From NCBI GenBank assembly GCA_963718915.1, contig CAVRAI010000014.1, forward strand, positions 1 to 32,000: 32,000 bases of DNA, in the 5' to 3' direction. Both the position numbers and the translations under genes were made by a program. The DNA is from an uncultured Chloroflexia bacterium. GTDB taxonomy: Bacteria > Chloroflexota > Ktedonobacteria > Ktedonobacterales > JADMIN01. Every line of letters starts with the position of its first letter. Positions within the stretch are counted from its first letter, which is position 1. Of this stretch, positions 337 through 31,310 are shown piece by piece. The notes beneath the pieces were generated by a model. The model saw nothing but the letters and a program-made list of their open reading frames with translations. It was not told the origin of the DNA and made no database searches.

Positions 337-1539
337 CTACATCTCTCGCGGCTGGCGTGGTTCGTGACGCCACATTCGTGGGGCATCCTCATCTCGACGA
401 CCCCGTCCTCGCAGTGGTCTTCCCGATCTCCCGGAGCGGCTGTCGGTTGCGAAGCCAAGGCGATCGACCGGGCTGGAGGCGCGCTGCAGCTCCCCGATCC
501 GCCCCGGAGTCATATTCAAGTACCCCTGGGTCGTGCGAATGTCGGCGTGGCCCAGTTTAAGCTGGACCGTCCGCAAGTCGGCGCCGGCGTCGAGGGTTTC
601 GAGTGCCGAGGTGTGGCGCAACAGGTGCAGGTGGAGATGCGGCACGCCCGCGGCACGCTCCAGGCGGTGCAGCCAGCTGCGCAGCCCATAATAGGTAAAG
701 CCTGTGCCATGGATCGTCTGGAAGAACGGCGCCAGCGCCGAAACATCGCTGTTATCCAGCCCCTCACGGAGGAGCGCGTAACGGCGCAGGGCGCGCATCG
801 TCTCACCGCCCACGGCGATCAGGCGCGGCTTACGCCCCTTACTGCGTCGCACGACAAGGATGCCTTCTTTGAGCGAGACATCGCCGATAGTCAGGGCGGC
901 AATTTCCCTTGCTCTCAGACCGCCGTCGATGAGGGTCAGCAGGAGCGCGCGCGAGCGCGCGCCGAAGACACTATCTCTGTCGTGCTCCGCCGCCCGCACC
1001 AACTTCCGTAAATCCCCAATCTTGACTGGCACCTTCGCCGTCTCTTCGCCCCGCGGCATTTTGAAGTAGCGCAGTGGCGACTCCTCGCAGTAGCGGTGCG
1101 GTGGCTTGGGCAGCCAATTAGCGAAGACCCGCAGGGTTCGCAGATAGGTGCGTAGCGAGGCGAGGGCAATCGGCGGGTTGCCTTCGGCGACGATGCCGCC
1201 CAGCGCCTTCGGCTGCGCACGCAGACACGCTGTCCAGGCACGAACGGTCTCGGTCGTGAAGTCGTTGAGATCCGGTGCGCGGTCAAGCGCCTCGCGCAGA
1301 TACGTGAGGTAGAGCGTGATCGGGCCGCGATAGGCGCGCTCAGTGGCGGCCGCCAGTGTCTGGGCCACCTCGTCAAGGAAATCCTCGATGAGTGGCTCGA
1401 GTGGGACGCGCGGGACTCGTGATCGCGGCGTTCGTGGAATGCGTGGAGCGCGATGAGGGCGCGCCGTTGCCTGTCCTACTGAACTGGGCAAGTCGGCCTC
1501 GCCTGTTGAGTTGGTGATAGAGAGCGATGCGTTGGCCAT
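337..1539 (-). CDS. tyrosine-type site-specific recombinase (phage-type integrase)
   Basis: 400-aa ORF. The C-terminal catalytic region has GLRAREIAAL (box I Arg), HLLRHTSA (H-x-x-R) and LGHADIRTTQGYLN (catalytic Tyr), as in the XerC/XerD/phage integrase family. The N-terminal part looks like a core-binding domain (ERAYRGPITLYLTYL). It lies about 400 bp from the 3' end of tRNA-Lys. Confidence 0.85.
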   Translation of the reverse strand: MANASLSITNSTGEADLPSSVGQATARPHRAPRIPRTPRSRVPRVPLEPLIEDFLDEVAQTLAAATERAYRGPITLYLTYLREALDRAPDLNDFTTETVRAWTACLRAQPKALGGIVAEGNPPIALASLRTYLRTLRVFANWLPKPPHRYCEESPLRYFKMPRGEETAKVPVKIGDLRKLVRAAEHDRDSVFGARSRALLLTLIDGGLRAREIAALTIGDVSLKEGILVVRRSKGRKPRLIAVGGETMRALRRYALLREGLDNSDVSALAPFFQTIHGTGFTYYGLRSWLHRLERAAGVPHLHLHLLRHTSALETLDAGADLRTVQLKLGHADIRTTQGYLNMTPGRIGELQRASSPVDRLGFATDSRSGRSGRPLRGRGRRDEDAPRMWRHEPRQPREM

Positions 1540-1942: not shown

Positions 1943-2018
<76 letters not shown>

Positions 2019-25154: not shown

Positions 25155-25226
25155 GGCCTCAATCGTTCGTAGTCGTGGCGGGTCTTGTATCTCTAGCCGC
25201 AACCACGGCCACTCAACAAACAGCGA

Positions 25227-25499
25227 TCAGGAGGGGTTAGGATTGTCATCGCCACCGCCGAACATGCCCCCGAGCGCCTGGCCAGCCTGGCCAGTGACTC
25301 CTCCCGCGCCACTCTGCCCGCCCATCAAACCATCGAGCTGTGAGGCAACCGGTCCCGGGAGTTTGTTCTTCAGGTAACCAATTACGGTCTGAACCGCCTG
25401 GTTGGCCTGATCCTGGCTGATACCAGTCTTCTGCACCACCTGATTCACCAGTTCATCCACGTCGCTCACTCCTTCCCGCGGATTAGCGATCATCCGCAT
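25227..25499 (-). CDS. small hypothetical protein with Gly-rich C-terminal tail
   Basis: The core DELVNQVVQKTGISQDQANQAVQTVIGYLKNKLPGPVASQLDGLMGG is followed by a G/Q-rich tail. The start is uncertain (ATG 25499 or 25493; TTG 25547 in the ORF track). Confidence 0.45.
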   Translation of the reverse strand: MRMIANPREGVSDVDELVNQVVQKTGISQDQANQAVQTVIGYLKNKLPGPVASQLDGLMGGQSGAGGVTGQAGQALGGMFGGGDDNPNPS

Positions 25500-25814
25500 C
25501 TGAGGCAAGAGTGCGCTGTTTTGCGCACCATCCGTCATACACCACAATTCCCAGTGCGGCGCAAGAGTGTAAGCACAATTGACGGCGTCATACCCTGCCG
25601 CGGTGGAGATTGGCCCCTACCTCCAGGCATAGGAAGCCATGTTCGACCGCGCGTGGCGCCTTGTGTTTTTCGCGCAGATATCTCACTTGCAATTCAATTT
25701 TCGCTCGATTACCATATGCTGGTGTCCCGTAAAGAACCTGTTTCGTATTGGGTCAAACTAGAGAAAACAGGTGAGACTGAGACGCCAGCGTTACCACTTC
25801 CAGGAGGGGAATCT

Positions 25815-27596
25815 GTGGCCAGCCGAGAGTTTACCGTCGCCGACGAGTATGTCTACAATCGCGCCGGGGCGGTGCGCTGGGTCATCTCCCACGTGCTGCG
25901 CTACAAGCGATTTCTGCTCGGAGCGGTCGGCGCGATGATTGTCGCGAATATCCTGCTCTCGGCAATTCCACGGCTGACGGGCGCCGCCTTCAATGTGGTC
26001 TTGCAGGAGCGGCCCGATCAGTCGCAACTGGCGCTGGTGGCGCTGGCGATCCTCGCGTGCGTGCTGGTGGGGGGCGTCTTCGACATGACGGCGCGCTTCA
26101 GCACCGAGATTCTGGCGCAGCGGCTGGAGCGGGACTCGCGCGACGAGTTGTATCTGAGCCTGCTGGGCAAGAGCCAGACCTTCCACAATCGCCAGCAGGT
26201 CGGCGACATCATGGCGCGGGCCACCAACGATGTGCGCCAGCTCAACCCGATGATGAACCCCGGCTTCGATCTGCTCTTCGACTCGCTGCTCAACCTCGTC
26301 GTCCCGATGGTCTTCATCGCGTTTCTCTCGCCGCAGTTGCTACTGGCGCCGCTGCTCTTCACCATCGGCTTCTTCTTCGCCATCCGCGACTACACCCGGC
26401 GGCTCAATCCCGTCTCGAATGCGATGCGCCAGCAATTTGGCGCGATGAACGCCGGGCTGGAGGAGACGATCACCGGCATCGAGGTGGTCAAGTCCACCGC
26501 GCAGGAGCCGCAGGAGCGCGCGAAGTTTGGCCGGAGCGCGCGCGGCTACCGCGACTATTTCATCCGCAACGGACAGATCCAGGCGTGGTACCTGCCGCCG
26601 CTGATCCTGGTGTTCGCGCTGGTGCTTGCCTTCCTCCATGGCGTCTTCCTGCTGACGCACGGCCAGTTGACGCTCGGCGGGCTGGTCGCCTACATGGGGC
26701 TGATGGGCATGCTGCGCGGGCCAGCCTACCTCTCGATCTTCACCTTCTCGCTCGTCCAGCTGGGCATCGCGGGCGCGAACCGCATTCTGGCGCTGATGCG
26801 TGAGGAGACCGAACTGGACGAGAACGAGGCGGGCCATCGCGGCGAGGTACGTGGCGAGATTGTCTTCGACCACGTCAGCTTCAGCTATGGCGAGACGCCG
26901 ATCCTGCGCGATATCTCGTTCCGCGCGGCGCCTGGCGAGACCATCGCCATCGTCGGCCAGACCGGCTCTGGCAAGAGCACGCTGACGCGGCTGGTCAACC
27001 GGACGTATGACGTGACGAGCGGGCGCATTTTGATCGACGGGGTAGACGTGCGCGACTGGAATCTGGATTCCTTGCGCTTGCAGATATCGTCTATCGAGCA
27101 GGATGTCTTTCTCTTCTCGCGCAGTATCGCCGAGAATATCGGTTTCAGCATGGGCCAGCGGGCCGAGCGCGCCGAGGTCGAGCGCGCCGCGCGGGATGCC
27201 CAGGCCGACGGCTTCGTGCGCGCCTTGCCTGAAGGCTACGAGACGGTCATCGGCGAGCGTGGTGTGACGCTTTCTGGTGGCCAGCGCCAGCGGCTGGCGA
27301 TTGCCCGCGCCCTCCTGACTGATCCGCGCATCCTGATGCTCGACGACTCGACCAGCGCGATTGATAGCGCGACCGAGGATGAGATTCAGAAGGCGATCCG
27401 GCGGCTGCTCGAAGGGCGCACGACACTGCTGATTACCCATCGGCTCTCGCAGATTCGCTGGGCCGACCGGATTCTGGTGCTGCGCAAGGGCGAGTTGGTG
27501 GATAGCGGCACACATGAGGAGCTGCTGGGTCGCTGCGACCTCTACCGCCGCATCTTCGCCCGCTACGATAGTGCGCTTCCGGTGGCGACGACGTGA
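25815..27596 (+). CDS. ABC exporter, fused permease/ATPase, subunit with degenerate Walker B
   Basis: A six-TM exporter domain followed by an NBD: Walker A GQTGSGKST, signature LSGGQRQR, Walker B ILMLDD followed by S (Asp in place of the catalytic Glu), H-loop ITHRLS. GVG 25815 is a GTG that follows AGGAGGGG by 5 nt, giving about 593 aa. The ORF-track start at 25521 adds an implausible leader. Confidence 0.9.
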   Translation: MASREFTVADEYVYNRAGAVRWVISHVLRYKRFLLGAVGAMIVANILLSAIPRLTGAAFNVVLQERPDQSQLALVALAILACVLVGGVFDMTARFSTEILAQRLERDSRDELYLSLLGKSQTFHNRQQVGDIMARATNDVRQLNPMMNPGFDLLFDSLLNLVVPMVFIAFLSPQLLLAPLLFTIGFFFAIRDYTRRLNPVSNAMRQQFGAMNAGLEETITGIEVVKSTAQEPQERAKFGRSARGYRDYFIRNGQIQAWYLPPLILVFALVLAFLHGVFLLTHGQLTLGGLVAYMGLMGMLRGPAYLSIFTFSLVQLGIAGANRILALMREETELDENEAGHRGEVRGEIVFDHVSFSYGETPILRDISFRAAPGETIAIVGQTGSGKSTLTRLVNRTYDVTSGRILIDGVDVRDWNLDSLRLQISSIEQDVFLFSRSIAENIGFSMGQRAERAEVERAARDAQADGFVRALPEGYETVIGERGVTLSGGQRQRLAIARALLTDPRILMLDDSTSAIDSATEDEIQKAIRRLLEGRTTLLITHRLSQIRWADRILVLRKGELVDSGTHEELLGRCDLYRRIFARYDSALPVATT

Positions 27597-27799: not shown

Positions 27800-29620
27800 A
27801 TGGGCTTCATCATGGACGGATTGGACGCCGACGCCTACGACCGCACGTATTCAGATCGCAAGCTGATCGCGCGCATCGTGCGCTACTTCGGGCCACGCGC
27901 GCGGATGATGCTGCTGGTGACGGCGATGATCGTGCTGGGATCGCTGGCCGATACCGTCCTGCCGCTGTTGCTGGCGCATGGCGTGGACGTCGTGACGACC
28001 TCGCACACCGCGGCGACGATTGCCGGACTGGTGGCGGCGATCCTGATCGCGGGCATCCTCTCGTGGTGCTTCAGCTTCGTGCGCCAGTGGTATACCGCGA
28101 AAGCCGTCGGCGAGGTCGTGCTGCAACTGCGGCTGGACGCCTTCTCCGCCGTCCTGGCGCGCGACATGTCGTTCTACGACGAGAACCCATCGGGCAAGAT
28201 TGTCAGCCGCGTCACCTCCGATACCGAGGACTTCTCGACCGTGGTGACGCTGGTGCTGAACCTCCTGAGCCAGGCGTTGCTGGTCATCCTGATCGCTATC
28301 GTGCTCTTCATCATCAACCCCGTGCTGGCGCTACTGGCGCTGGGCATCGCGCCGTTCATCATCGCGGTGGCGCTCGCCTTCCGCCGCATCGCGCGCACCA
28401 CCGTCCGCAACTCGCAGCGGGCGCGGGCGCGAGTCAACAACACCATCCAGGAGACGATCAGCGGCATCGCCATCGCCAAGAACTTCCGCCAGGAGCAGAC
28501 GGTCTATAACGAGTTTGGCGCGGTCAACCGGCAGGCGTATCAGGTGAACTGGCGGACGGGCTTCGTCTTCAACGGCGTCTTCCCCATCCTCAACACCGTC
28601 GCGGGCCTGGGCACCGTCGTCATCATCTGGTTCGGCGGGCTGAACGTGCTGCATGGCGCTGTCTCGGCGGGCACCTGGTATCTCTTCGTGCAGAGCATCG
28701 CCATTTTCTGGTTCCCGCTGACCAGCATCGCCTCGTTCTGGAGCCAGTTCCAGCAGGGATTATCCGCTAGCGAGCGGGTCTTCGCGCTGATCGACGCCGA
28801 GCCGCGTGTGGAGCAGACCGACGCGCAGCCAGTGGCGTCGCTCGAAGGGCGGATCGAGTTCCGCGACTTCTACTTCGGCTACAACGCCGAGCATACTGTC
28901 CTGCCGGGGCTGAACCTGACGATCCCCGCCGGGCAGACGGTCGCGGTGGTGGGGCATACCGGCGCGGGCAAATCGAGCCTGGCGCGGCTGGTGGCGCGGT
29001 TCTACGAGTTCCAGGGCGGCGAGCTGCTGATCGACGGGCGCGACATCCGCACGTTCGATCTGCGCGACTACCGGCGCCACCTGGGCATTGTGCCGCAGAC
29101 GCCCTTCCTCTTCGACGGCACGGTGGCCGAGAATATCCGCTATGCCCGCCCAGATGCCACGGAGGACGAGGTGGCGGCGGTGGCGCGGCAGATTGGCGGC
29201 GGCGACTGGCTCGACGGCCTCTCTCATGGGCTAGAGACGCCGGTGGGCGAGATGGGGCGTGGCCTCTCGATGGGCCAGCGGCAACTGGTGGCTTTGGCGC
29301 GGGTGCTGCTGCAGAATCCCGCCATCCTGGTGCTGGACGAGGCGACGGCGAGCGTCGATCCGCTGACCGAGGCGCAGATTCAAGAGGGGCTGGAGACGGT
29401 GCTGGAGCATCGGACGGCGATGGTGATCGCGCACCGGCTCTCGACGATCCGCGACGCCGACCGCATCCTGGTGCTGGATCGCGGGCGCATCGTGGAGGAG
29501 GGCACGCACGACGAGCTACTGCTGCGCGGAGGCTCCTATGCGACGCTCTACAACACCTATTTCCGCCATCAAAGCGCCGACTATGTGCCCGGCAGCGGCT
29601 ACGTGGCGGTGGCGGATTGA
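27800..29620 (+). CDS. ABC exporter, fused permease/ATPase, subunit with canonical catalytic site and degenerate signature
   Basis: Walker A GHTGAGKSS, signature LSMGQRQL (degenerate LSGGQ), Walker B ILVLDEATSAVD (catalytic Glu present), H-loop IAHRLS. 606 aa. Confidence 0.92.
   Translation: MGFIMDGLDADAYDRTYSDRKLIARIVRYFGPRARMMLLVTAMIVLGSLADTVLPLLLAHGVDVVTTSHTAATIAGLVAAILIAGILSWCFSFVRQWYTAKAVGEVVLQLRLDAFSAVLARDMSFYDENPSGKIVSRVTSDTEDFSTVVTLVLNLLSQALLVILIAIVLFIINPVLALLALGIAPFIIAVALAFRRIARTTVRNSQRARARVNNTIQETISGIAIAKNFRQEQTVYNEFGAVNRQAYQVNWRTGFVFNGVFPILNTVAGLGTVVIIWFGGLNVLHGAVSAGTWYLFVQSIAIFWFPLTSIASFWSQFQQGLSASERVFALIDAEPRVEQTDAQPVASLEGRIEFRDFYFGYNAEHTVLPGLNLTIPAGQTVAVVGHTGAGKSSLARLVARFYEFQGGELLIDGRDIRTFDLRDYRRHLGIVPQTPFLFDGTVAENIRYARPDATEDEVAAVARQIGGGDWLDGLSHGLETPVGEMGRGLSMGQRQLVALARVLLQNPAILVLDEATASVDPLTEAQIQEGLETVLEHRTAMVIAHRLSTIRDADRILVLDRGRIVEEGTHDELLLRGGSYATLYNTYFRHQSADYVPGSGYVAVAD
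29577..29620 (+). repeat. direct repeat copy A (native 3' end of the ABC gene)
   Basis: 29577-29613 matches 31221-31257 at 34 of 37 positions (ccgactatgtGcCcggcagcggctaCgtggcggtggc). It encodes ...DYVPGSGYVAVAD*. Confidence 0.8.
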
Positions 29621-29665: not shown

Positions 29666-29688
29666 GCCGCAGGCTGAAGCCCTGCGGC
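29666..29688. repeat. GC-rich hairpin (REP-like) downstream of the ABC gene
   Basis: GCCGCAGG ctgaagc CCTGCGGC, a perfect 8-bp stem. The GGCTGAAGCC core resembles the GGCTTCAGCC and GGCTAAAGCC cores at 17633 and 27625. Confidence 0.5.
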
Positions 29689-29715
29689 TAATCCCATCAG
29701 TTCAGTATCCTCTCG

Positions 29716-29753
29716 CCCGGCGGTGGGTATGTGGCAGTGGCCGAGGGCGAGCG
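29716..29753 (+). repeat. direct repeat copy C (left border of the low-GC islet)
   Basis: 29716-29753 matches 31232-31269 at 33 of 38 positions. The core tatgtggcRgtggccgagggcgagcg matches at 25 of 26. Read in frame it would encode PGGGYVAVAEGERAG*. Confidence 0.8.
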
Positions 29754-31220
29754 CGCGGGGTGATTTGTAGGATTCGCCTTTGTGGCTGAGTGAGAATGAT
29801 TATCGGGTACGGTCTTAATGACTGGTTTGGGTATTTATTGCATCGAACAGGTCTGCCAAAGGCTTTTCATATTCGCTGTGTTCAAACACAATGCGATGGA
29901 GCGCGCTCAAAATTATTGGAACCTTACAAGGTCGCAACAAAATCGGGATGATTGGTATGTGCTGGTCATGAGCATACCAAGTCTCCATGTCGACCCATTC
30001 TGATTCCACCGCATCTGGCGAAAGAATGGTAATGACCGCATCACTCTCATCAATTGCGCTTTGTATGTTCCGTATCCACCTATCTCCTCCTTTCAACTTG
30101 CTTTTGTCAATCCAAGGTACTAATCCACGCGTGCTAAGAGACTGCTCAAGACGATGCGCAAATACCGCGTCCTTATGAGAGTGGCTGATGAAGACCTTCT
30201 TCGATGCTGAATCTACCTCAGCGACGACGTCACGCACTGACATGCCGCCTTTGCTTGGTTGTTTCCAGCCTTGCCTCCATTGAATTATACCCTGGAATAC
30301 TGAGCCGACAATTATGAACAGCAGACTAATCAGAGCAAGAAGTAATATTGAAGGGACGCTCACCAACAGAACCGCTATCCCTTCCGCCCCGATGACAAAA
30401 CCTTTCCATCCTAAAAAGACACCAATAAACACGAGTGATGATATGCTAAAGAGTGCACTTGCTGTGACAACTGCGGGTTGCATGCTAAAGAACTGTTGAA
30501 ATAATCCGCCCAAAGTGAGAAAAATCACAGCAACGACATCGCTGAGAAACATGAAAATCGCAAGGTAGAGTCTGATACGACGTTCTAGAGGTGAAAGATC
30601 GGGTTCAATTCGAACTACATCAGGGAGTCCAGGCACATGTTCTTCAATTAGCATGCCTGATAGAGTCGCGATCGTGACAAAGAAGACACCAGTAATAACC
30701 GGGAGATACGGATAGAGAACTCTAAGCCATGATGGTGGTGCTCCGCCACCAAAGAGAATCGGCGCCCGTGTTGAGACTAAGATGTAATTGGAGCCAACAC
30801 TTACTAATAGCAGAAACAGATATATAAAGCGTCTGACCCACGCGCTGGTGATTTCGCTTACTGTTGGTCTTTGTACTGTCTTCCTAATCTCATCAAAGTC
30901 TGGTAGGCTTCCAGTCTCTTTTTGCCTTTGCGCTTCAGCAATGACCTTTAGATAAATTCTCCTTGCTTGTCTTTCTTCCTCGCCATCACGAGACCAAAAA
31001 CTGTTTATAGCGTGCTGGAGGCGAGTTGCGCCACGAATGACAATATAGCCTGTGGACACAAAAAAGTTCGCACGTGGAGAAACGTTTTCTACCATTCTTT
31101 GATTAGAACCCCCACGCATGCTAAGCAATCGTCAAGCGATCGTCAGCAGTATAGCACAGGCTTGCAGCCATCTCTCTTTGCATTCAAATTGGGCGGCCTC
31201 TATCTCCTCCGCCTAAGACA
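29754..31220. mobile_element. compositionally foreign single-gene islet (no recombinase on board)
   Basis: Hand counts on four 60-nt lines inside it (29881, 30301, 30361, 30781) give 43, 42, 50 and 38% G+C, against 68% for line 29341 in the adjacent ABC gene. It is bounded by direct repeat copies C and B. Confidence 0.55.
29815..31119 (-). CDS. multi-pass membrane protein with C-terminal TIR domain
   Basis: The C-terminal 128 aa (29818-30201) read KKVFISHSHKDAVFAHRLEQSLSTRGLVPWIDKSKLKGGDRWIRNIQSAIDESDAVITILSPDAVESEWVDME. This matches the bacterial TIR pattern F-I-S-[HY]-x-x-x-D, G..W.D, AI..S...I.ILS and S.WV..E. It is preceded by about 5 strongly hydrophobic helices (e.g. FIYLFLLLVSVGSNYILV, LPVITGVFFVTIATLSGMLI, LYLAIFMFLSDVVAVIFLTLGGL, GIAVLLVSVPSILLLALISLLFIIVGSVF) and an N-terminal region of about 90 aa of unknown type. 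Start is ATG 31119 (alternatives TTG 31128 and ATG 31095). A possible extended -10, TGCTATACT, lies at 31148-31156 on the minus strand. Confidence 0.8.
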   Translation of the reverse strand: MRGGSNQRMVENVSPRANFFVSTGYIVIRGATRLQHAINSFWSRDGEEERQARRIYLKVIAEAQRQKETGSLPDFDEIRKTVQRPTVSEITSAWVRRFIYLFLLLVSVGSNYILVSTRAPILFGGGAPPSWLRVLYPYLPVITGVFFVTIATLSGMLIEEHVPGLPDVVRIEPDLSPLERRIRLYLAIFMFLSDVVAVIFLTLGGLFQQFFSMQPAVVTASALFSISSLVFIGVFLGWKGFVIGAEGIAVLLVSVPSILLLALISLLFIIVGSVFQGIIQWRQGWKQPSKGGMSVRDVVAEVDSASKKVFISHSHKDAVFAHRLEQSLSTRGLVPWIDKSKLKGGDRWIRNIQSAIDESDAVITILSPDAVESEWVDMETWYAHDQHIPIIPILLRPCKVPIILSALHRIVFEHSEYEKPLADLFDAINTQTSH

Positions 31221-31269
31221 CCGACTATGTCCTCGGCAGCGGCTATGTGGCGGTGGCCGAGGGCGAGCG
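31221..31269 (+). repeat. direct repeat copy B (right border of the islet; hybrid of A and C)
   Basis: ccgactatgtcctcggcagcggctatgtggcggtggccgagggcgagcg. The left part matches copy A and the right part matches copy C. In the ABC reading frame it would encode DYVLGSGYVAVAEGERAA... Confidence 0.8.
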
Positions 31270-31310
31270 AGCCGCAGCAATAGACTCGCTCTTGTGCTTG
31301 TCTTCTCCGT

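Follow-up and report, generated by a model that had tools for sequence, protein, structure and literature searches.

The stretch of DNA analyzed here (the window; 32,000 nucleotides, nt) comprises positions 1 to 32,000 of contig CAVRAI010000014.1 (GenBank assembly GCA_963718915.1) of an uncultured Chloroflexia bacterium. Near its right end, on the reverse strand, it carries an open reading frame (ORF; 29815..31128) encoding a membrane-anchored protein with a C-terminal TIR domain. Translation from the TTG codon at 31128 gives 437 amino acids (aa) and from the ATG codon at 31119, 434 aa; an identical protein of 434 aa, beginning at ATG 31119, is present in the NCBI/ENA databases (P0001), where it is the lone member of its cluster. 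A stop codon is located in frame three codons upstream of the TTG, and no remnant of a further helix was found in frame upstream of this codon. At the base composition of the low-GC islet described below, the chance of a stop-free run of 437 codons is 3e-11, and the region of 29815..31128 (reverse strand) is a genuine gene. A putative extended -10-like element, TGCTATACT (31148..31156, reverse strand), identified by its match to the consensus only, is placed 29 nt upstream of the ATG. No clear Shine-Dalgarno-like sequence was recognized directly before the ATG; downstream of the stop codon, neither a terminator nor a stable hairpin was found.

The TIR gene is the sole ORF of at least 64 aa within a low-GC islet (29790..31215; approximately 1.43 kb, 46% GC), which is the sole composition outlier of the window. 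The GC content of the islet is 0.46 vs. 0.63 for the rest of the window, whose other 1-kb blocks all have at least 57% GC, and the GC3 value of the TIR gene is 0.43 vs. 0.83-0.90 in the three flanking genes. The gene is thus foreign and was acquired horizontally. The halves encoding the membrane module and the TIR domain are equal in GC content (0.457 and 0.461, respectively), which indicates that the fusion of the two parts is older than the transfer. The loci of the protein family to which the membrane module belongs (described below) have 50-68% GC, with those of Ktedonobacteraceae as low as 48%, and a lower-GC relative is a plausible donor.

The islet is flanked by an ABC exporter gene pair and a fatty-acid desaturase gene. 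Other genes of the window encode Dxs, GpsA, a YggS-like protein, a laccase-like protein, TrpD, a rhomboid protein and a methyltransferase. The host is Ktedonobacteria-like: the best match of the exporter protein ABC2 (72% identity) originates from a metagenome-assembled genome of the Ktedonobacterales. No ThsA, SAVED, cyclase, Argonaute or reverse transcriptase (RT) genes were found in the islet or adjoining it. A first-pass annotation of this DNA, made from the letters and their ORFs, had proposed an orphan gene of about 435 aa, alone in a low-GC patch of foreign composition and lacking such partners; all three points agree with the above results.

The islet is bounded by copies of the 3' end of ABC2, three of which are present on the forward strand: (i) copy A (29577..29616), the final 40 nt of the coding sequence of the live ABC2 gene, encoding a peptide that ends in DYVPGSGYVAVAD before the stop codon; (ii) copy B (29705..29788), directly to the left of the islet, encoding an orthologue-type ABC2 tail that ends in PGGGYVAVAEGERAG before a stop codon; and (iii) copy C (31221..31300), directly to the right of the islet, where the encoded peptide starts with DYVLGSGYVAVAEGERAAAIDS and again runs to a stop codon. 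Copies A and C (31221-31260) are identical at 36 of 40 nt, while copies B and C share 25 of 26 nt in their core and show a weaker likeness over approximately 65 nt; the B-C period is 1516 nt, with low-GC DNA between them. The core motif is absent from the rest of the window (0 occurrences expected by chance), and the C-terminal peptide of ABC2 is still encoded by all three copies. A clean empty site was sought in relatives and none was found; the exporter gene pair is conserved in Chloroflexota and Actinomycetota, and the desaturase gene is not syntenic. The C-termini of ABC2 orthologues were compared instead. These end in ...FVAVAEGPLAL... (locus L008) and ...FVAVAEGRALD... (L012), and match copies B and C, which therefore retain the orthologue-type VAVAEG tail, the end of the live ABC2 gene having been substituted.

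The position of the TIR gene between duplicated ABC2 3' ends identifies it as part of an inserted cassette. The insertion hit the 3' end of ABC2 and duplicated this target, probably in two events. No recombinase is encoded in the insert of 1.5-1.6 kb, and the arrangement suggests that the site was used more than once for insertion although no recombinase resides there. It resembles the integrative elements that target 3' ends, duplicate their att sites and restore the interrupted gene with their own copy: the islet lies between direct repeats of the ABC2 3' end, the live tail has been substituted and the orthologue-type tails have been displaced downstream. Unlike such elements, however, the insert carries no integrase or transposase gene, and there are three copies instead of two, which are only 90-96% identical. 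The triple 3'-end duplication around a single-gene insert of 1.5 kb is an unusually clear footprint of cassette acquisition without a resident recombinase. The A-B interval (128 nt) contains a hairpin, CCGCAGG-N7-CCTGCGG, at 29668-29690. An Rfam scan detected no RNA gene at the ABC2 repeats; its only match was a tRNA-Lys gene elsewhere in the window.

The TIR domain of the window protein (29854..30195, reverse strand; residues 312-425) matches Pfam TIR_2 (PF13676) at E = 2.4e-24, with 86.6 bits vs. a cut-off of 28, over profile positions 1-119 of 122. The scores for ThsB_TIR (32.6 bits vs. a cut-off of 21.2) and for the Pfam TIR model are likewise above the cut-off, while the CAP12-PCTIR_TIR model, half of whose profile is covered, gives 24.6 bits vs. 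24.7. The domain contains FISHSHKD at residue 313, PWID at residue 338 and ILSPDAVESEWVDME, which ends at E382 (E379 when counted from the ATG; codon 29983..29985, reverse strand). In a joint MAFFT alignment E382 shares one column with E642 of SARM1 and with the aligned glutamate of AbTIR, Cat1, TLR1, proteins P0003-P0005 and P0031 (a relative described below); the AbTIR segment ...KKDWTNYE aligns column for column with ...ESEWVDME. The glutamate belongs to the W-x3-E motif, located where helix C begins in TIR NADases of the SARM1/AbTir type. The SARM1 TIR sequence used is 100% identical to the PDB chains that cover residues 560-700. The BB-loop glycine, which TIR-TIR assembly requires, is also present, with LKGGD aligning with LKVGD of AbTIR and LEAGK of SARM1. 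A phmmer search of PDB sequences gave alignments to Cat1, TLR1, AbTIR and further bacterial TIRs. The first-pass annotation had recognized the TIR domain from its FISHSHKD and PWID motifs and had named the glutamate of WVDME as the catalytic residue; the former is confirmed by the Pfam match, and the latter is supported, at the sequence level, by the joint alignment and the AbTIR match. The domain thus appears to be catalytically intact.

Two regions precede the TIR domain: (i) a charged helical linker (30838..31128, reverse strand; residues 1-97), predicted to be cytoplasmic, and (ii) a polytopic membrane module (30268..30837, reverse strand; residues 98-287). Hydropathy analysis distinguished five strongly hydrophobic segments in the latter (approximately residues 99-120, 138-162, 184-211, 217-241 and 243-284), the last of which is over-long (42 aa). 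Both regions are shared with a small protein family. When 5.8 billion clusters were searched by word index, only the identical protein and P0002 (706 aa) were retrieved; P0002 is 44% identical over residues 18-270, while its C-terminal half is unrelated. With a profile of the shared part, HMMER was run in full against 1.84 billion representatives and matched 24 clusters (E <= 1e-10 for 20), and the window protein matches the module profile at E of about 1e-161 to 7.6e-161. Nineteen diverse module sequences gave no consistent match to Pfam. No relatives were detected in species-representative genomes scanned with the N-terminal module, or in IMG/VR viral contigs and JGI metagenome contigs scanned with the module alignment. 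A word-indexed protein search with the 19-sequence alignment returned two matches only, the query being swamped by hydrophobic words. Judged by these comparisons, the linker and the membrane part constitute a very rare, undescribed module.

Alignment of the family (alignment A4) defined several conserved features: (i) the charged helical linker with a WSxxGExxRQ motif (WSRDGEEERQ in the window protein); (ii) W-x-x-R at the start of transmembrane segment 1 (TM1), in which the arginine is invariant and the tryptophan nearly so; (iii) RAPILFGGG in loop 1 and VKxEP in loop 2; (iv) ITGxxFVxIAxLSGMLIxE in TM2, with an acidic residue at its end; and (v) a frequent aspartate within TM3, followed by a W-P/K-G turn and the over-long last hydrophobic stretch. 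In most relatives a further helix (TM0) precedes the linker at the N-terminus; positive charges are absent ahead of TM0 and numerous behind it.

In the long family members the module is followed by a conserved domain of approximately 380 aa (P0002, P0029, P0007, P0008, P0030, P0012-14, P0020-22, P0025 and P0032). This domain had no Pfam match, and its profile retrieved nothing from PDB sequences. An AlphaFold model of it was built from six family sequences (pTM 0.69, pLDDT 58), and in a Foldseek search of PDB with this model the top 50 matches were all tubulin or FtsZ (E 8.6e-6 to 5e-4, probability 1.00); the top BFVD matches were a phage tubulin and a phage cell-division protein. The T1-like GxGxxGS motif is kept and the GGGTGTG signature is missing. 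According to the model, the domain has the tubulin/FtsZ fold and is a candidate GTPase at most. In P0025 (960 aa) two apparently tandem modules (approximately 115-330 and 357-585) precede the tubulin-fold domain.

The genes of these membrane-anchored tubulin/FtsZ-fold proteins belong to an operon of conserved order, found at L002:25-9704, L003:6315-13333, L085:240-8610 together with L086, L088:813-6516 and L089:1302-4273. It comprises one or two genes encoding proteins of approximately 300 aa, followed by those for the membrane-anchored tubulin/FtsZ-fold protein, a soluble paralogue, a protein of approximately 500 aa and a NACHT-like STAND NTPase. The canonical operon proteins have no PADLOC match and, besides weak NACHT hits, no Pfam match. 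STAND NTPases adjoin the module relatives in L002, L085 and L003. In the last of these, a TIR-STAND NTPase gene (792 aa, N-terminal TIR_2) and a caspase-like Peptidase_C14 gene lie ahead of the canonical operon and are encoded on the other strand (L003:1708-6182), a neighborhood that resembles a conflict system.

The window protein shares with this unnamed family the homologous linker and module, including W-x-x-R, LFGGG, LSGMLIxE and VKxEP. It differs in carrying a TIR domain in place of the C-terminal domain of approximately 380 aa and in having no TM0, and the operon partners are missing: no homologue of them was found in the window. One further relative, P0031 (512 aa; L001:617-2155, Logan run SRR29757247), has an N-terminal TIR_2 domain that replaces TM0 and is followed by the linker and the membrane module. 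This protein ends after the last hydrophobic segment, retains the aligned TIR glutamate, and its TIR domain is 32% identical to that of the TIR-STAND protein of L003. Taken together, P0031 and the window protein show the TIR domain joined to the module in two arrangements, at opposite ends.

The likely topology was deduced from charge distribution. In the window protein the N-terminal region of approximately 95 aa contains 15 lysine and arginine (K/R) residues (family mean 12.4), and the family means for loops 1, 2 and 3 are 1.6, 3.8 and 0.26, respectively. The tail past the last hydrophobic segment is positively charged (RQGWKQPSKGGMSVR in the window protein, HREGKAK in P0002). This distribution, together with the N-terminal TIR domain of P0031 and the C-terminal one of the window protein, both of which need cytoplasmic NAD+, argues for a cytoplasmic position of both termini. 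If both termini are cytoplasmic, the number of spans should be even and the last segment of 42 aa would form a hairpin; six spans, the last two as a hairpin, are most likely. By the same rules, the linker is most likely cytoplasmic.

A TLR-like topology with an outside sensor was considered and rejected, given the K/R-rich N-terminus, the N-out helix that precedes the linker in relatives, the TIR domain placed before the linker in P0031 and the shortness of the predicted external loops (about 29, 13 and a few residues). The first-pass annotation had correctly counted about five long hydrophobic helices, and it had also proposed a TLR-like order of sensor, membrane and cytoplasmic TIR. The latter, with its extracytoplasmic N-terminal sensor, is unlikely, as the N-terminal region of approximately 95 aa is K/R-rich and follows the TIR domain in P0031. 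Similarity to TLRs and SARM1 is confined to membrane association, the cytoplasmic TIR domain and the glutamate equivalent to E642 of SARM1, with TLR1 among the best PDB sequence matches. A TLR crosses the membrane once and bears a large LRR sensor on the outside, whereas the module of the window protein is polytopic, with small external loops and a probably cytoplasmic N-terminus; the likeness is one of layout only, with no homology outside the TIR domain.

Comparison with known defence systems gave matches confined to the TIR domain and far below equivalog cut-offs. PADLOC and NCBIfam models reaching it were SAVED_TIR, PycTIR, Aga_TIR (limited to profile positions 4-132 of 430), ThsB, PDC-S66, PDC-S35, retron-TIR (NCBIfam Retron_TIR, 33.3 bits vs. 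a cut-off of 600) and ThcB4 of Thoeris type III (40.9 bits vs. 220). The view of the first-pass annotation that the protein belongs to no named defence system is consistent with this outcome. Three groups of systems were tried and rejected: (i) Thoeris, where a ThsB_TIR domain match is accompanied by no adjacent ThsA-type effector gene and by the low ThcB4 score; (ii) CBASS and Pycsar TIR effectors, since the protein has no SAVED or cyclic-nucleotide-binding domain and no cyclase is encoded nearby; and (iii) retron-TIR and SPARTA, for which there is no RT, APAZ or Argonaute partner and for which the Retron_TIR score is far from its cut-off.

Thoeris, CBASS and Pycsar share some features with the window protein. 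Its TIR domain matches ThsB_TIR and the PADLOC ThsB models at the domain level, but ThsB proteins are not polytopic membrane proteins and the window protein has no neighboring ThsA-type effector. Similarly, TIR NADases and membrane effectors occur in CBASS (Cap12, TIR-SAVED) and Pycsar (PycTIR and PycTM), whose SAVED_TIR and PycTIR models match the TIR domain; in contrast to them, the window protein contains no SAVED or cyclic nucleotide monophosphate-binding domain and is accompanied by no cyclase gene. A further parallel is found in TIR systems of Escherichia coli, with which the window protein shares a TIR_2-type domain with a W-x3-E glutamate, the BB-loop glycine and the single-gene organization without an adjacent effector. 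Single-protein TIR systems and TM-containing TIR systems provide phage defence in E. coli, need the TIR active-site residues and act by abortive infection (PMC11350192). The E. coli single-gene TIR proteins either are short, soluble polypeptides or contain different sensor regions, whereas the TIR domain described here, with its predicted activity, is placed behind a polytopic module lacking any Pfam, PADLOC or NCBIfam model. Numerous novel types of Thoeris have been described as well, whose effectors are diverse and often membrane proteins (bioRxiv 10.64898/2025.12.03.692087).

The reading that we favor, although its chances are about even, is that the cassette encodes a self-contained, membrane-tethered TIR NADase that would be activated by clustering and serve in defence or conflict. 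For the TIR NADases SARM1, AbTir, plant TIRs and the Cat1 filaments, oligomerisation is an established requirement for activity. By this scheme the protein would be dispersed and inactive in the inner membrane, with both termini in the cytoplasm. A trigger linked to infection or to perturbation of the envelope or membrane may cause its lateral clustering through the membrane module and linker, and the clustered TIR domains could then form head-to-tail assemblies with a composite active site. The assembled enzyme would consume NAD+ or make an ADP-ribose (ADPR)-derived product, leading to arrest or death of the cell, i.e., a one-protein abortive-infection or conflict function. The membrane module, which elsewhere tethers a self-assembling tubulin-fold domain, would here provide tethering and lateral association.

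The product is probably an immune or suicide enzyme. A defence role is favored on account of the domain swapping, the indirect contextual support from the STAND, TIR-STAND and caspase neighbors of the relatives, the cassette-type mobility, the precedents among E. coli TIR systems (PMC11350192) and the Thoeris membrane effectors (bioRxiv 10.64898/2025.12.03.692087).

Several observations weigh against this reading. The window is a housekeeping region and not a defence island, and no trigger or sensor domain was identified in the window protein. TM0, present in most family members, is missing from it, and with no TM0 and no operon partners the protein could be a crippled derivative. Only two TIR-module fusions were found in a collection of 15 billion proteins, a rarity so extreme that selection for the architecture is not demonstrated. 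The aligned glutamate is also present in TLR1, a non-NADase scaffold, and by itself is no proof of catalysis. AlphaFold, run on the complete protein as a single sequence, gave a model (pLDDT 45) that informs neither superposition nor topology, and the deduced topology rests on charge rules and one comparison.

Among the alternatives, it is unlikely, though worth weighing first, that the gene is a non-functional passenger, i.e., a truncated, partnerless remnant of the family that was brought in by the insertion, is unexpressed or useless, and awaits decay. The loss of TM0 and of the operon partners fits such an origin, as do the lack of a Shine-Dalgarno-like sequence directly before the ATG and of a terminator after the gene, the single identical database copy and the absence of an integrase from the islet. 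On the other hand, a frame of 437 codons has stayed intact in AT-rich DNA (P = 3e-11), the family motifs and the TIR motifs are all intact, P0031 indicates that TM0 is dispensable, and an extended -10-like element is placed upstream of the gene.

Two further proposals are improbable to the same degree. According to the first, the protein is a ThsB-like signal generator: the membrane-tethered TIR domain would sense infection and make a cyclic ADPR (cADPR)-isomer or ADPR-derived signal, to be received by an effector whose gene lies in another part of the genome. The ThsB_TIR score above the cut-off (32.6 vs. 21.2 bits), the matches to several PADLOC ThsB models and the many new Thoeris types, often with membrane effectors (bioRxiv 10.64898/2025.12.03.692087), are in line with this proposal. 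However, there is no effector gene in the cassette or within 28 kb upstream of it, the NCBIfam Thoeris type III model reaches only 40.9 bits vs. a cut-off of 220, and Thoeris genes are normally adjacent, so that a foreign single-gene cassette would have come without its partner.

The second proposal is a non-immune role, in which the module family would belong to the cytoskeletal or remodelling machinery at the membrane of filamentous Ktedonobacteria, and the TIR form would be a scaffold or an NAD-linked regulator, e.g., of developmental cell death. It draws on the usual fusion partner of the module, a domain of tubulin/FtsZ fold whose gene precedes that of a tubulin-like paralogue in the conserved operon, on operon proteins without a PADLOC match, on the Ktedonobacteria-like host lineage and on the link of other divergent FtsZ-like families with membrane remodelling (PMC2875224). 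Yet the gene in the window is without any operon partner and arrived as a foreign cassette, and the STAND NTPase, TIR-STAND and caspase neighbors of the relatives, as well as the exchange of terminal domains, are characteristic of conflict systems.

By analogy with the TM effectors of CBASS, Pycsar and Thoeris, the membrane module might itself be the killing device (a pore or membrane disruptor), with the TIR domain as a regulatory or ligand-producing head in cis, but this is very unlikely: conserved intramembrane residues (the aspartate inside TM3, the acidic residue at the end of TM2 and the invariant arginine at the start of TM1) and the frequency of TM effectors in signalling defence systems speak for it, while the module, being constitutively joined to a tubulin-fold domain within a conserved operon, looks more like an anchor than a toxin, and no similarity to SLATT, DUF2270 or other known TM effectors was found.

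Returning to the membrane-tethered, clustering-activated NADase, neither the TIR domain nor the concept of a defence protein consisting of one TIR gene product is new, while the libraries and literature searched contained no description of the membrane module, of the exchange of tubulin-fold and TIR domains on it, or of the cassette footprint. If active, the product would represent a TIR NADase that is encoded by one gene, is tethered to the membrane and has a sensor or anchor module without relationship to described defence proteins, and it would broaden the range of known control modes of TIR enzymes. The exchange of tubulin-fold and TIR domains on one rare module, with the TIR domain at either end, connects two kinds of self-assembling domain. 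The uncharacterised operon, encoding a membrane-anchored tubulin-like pair and a STAND NTPase, may be a new conflict or cytoskeletal system.

A wider and rather doubtful extension would treat all these proteins as a new conflict or immune apparatus of Ktedonobacteria-like bacteria, i.e., a membrane platform with exchangeable self-assembling cytoplasmic domains, of which the gene in the window would be the minimal mobile form. Just as speculatively, the exchangeable domains would be the tubulin-fold pair in the full operon, alongside the STAND NTPase, or a TIR NADase in the single-gene versions, which together would form a new class of filament-based membrane immune effectors.

Two other regions of the window are worth recording. 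Close to its left end, a tyrosine integrase gene (337-1539, reverse strand), the only integrase gene of the window, is located beside the tRNA-Lys(CTT) gene (1943-2018, reverse strand). Such pairs usually mark the edge of an integrated element, which in this case would reach past the left end of the window; the distance to the TIR islet is 28 kb. A dip in GC content (0.53-0.59), with which the Rfam scan found no RNA family associated, occurs at 25200-25900, where it takes in the beginning of the first ABC exporter gene and the DNA immediately before it. The ORF of this gene has a mechanical start at 25521 and an annotated start at 25716, which points to either a long 5' leader or a mis-called start.

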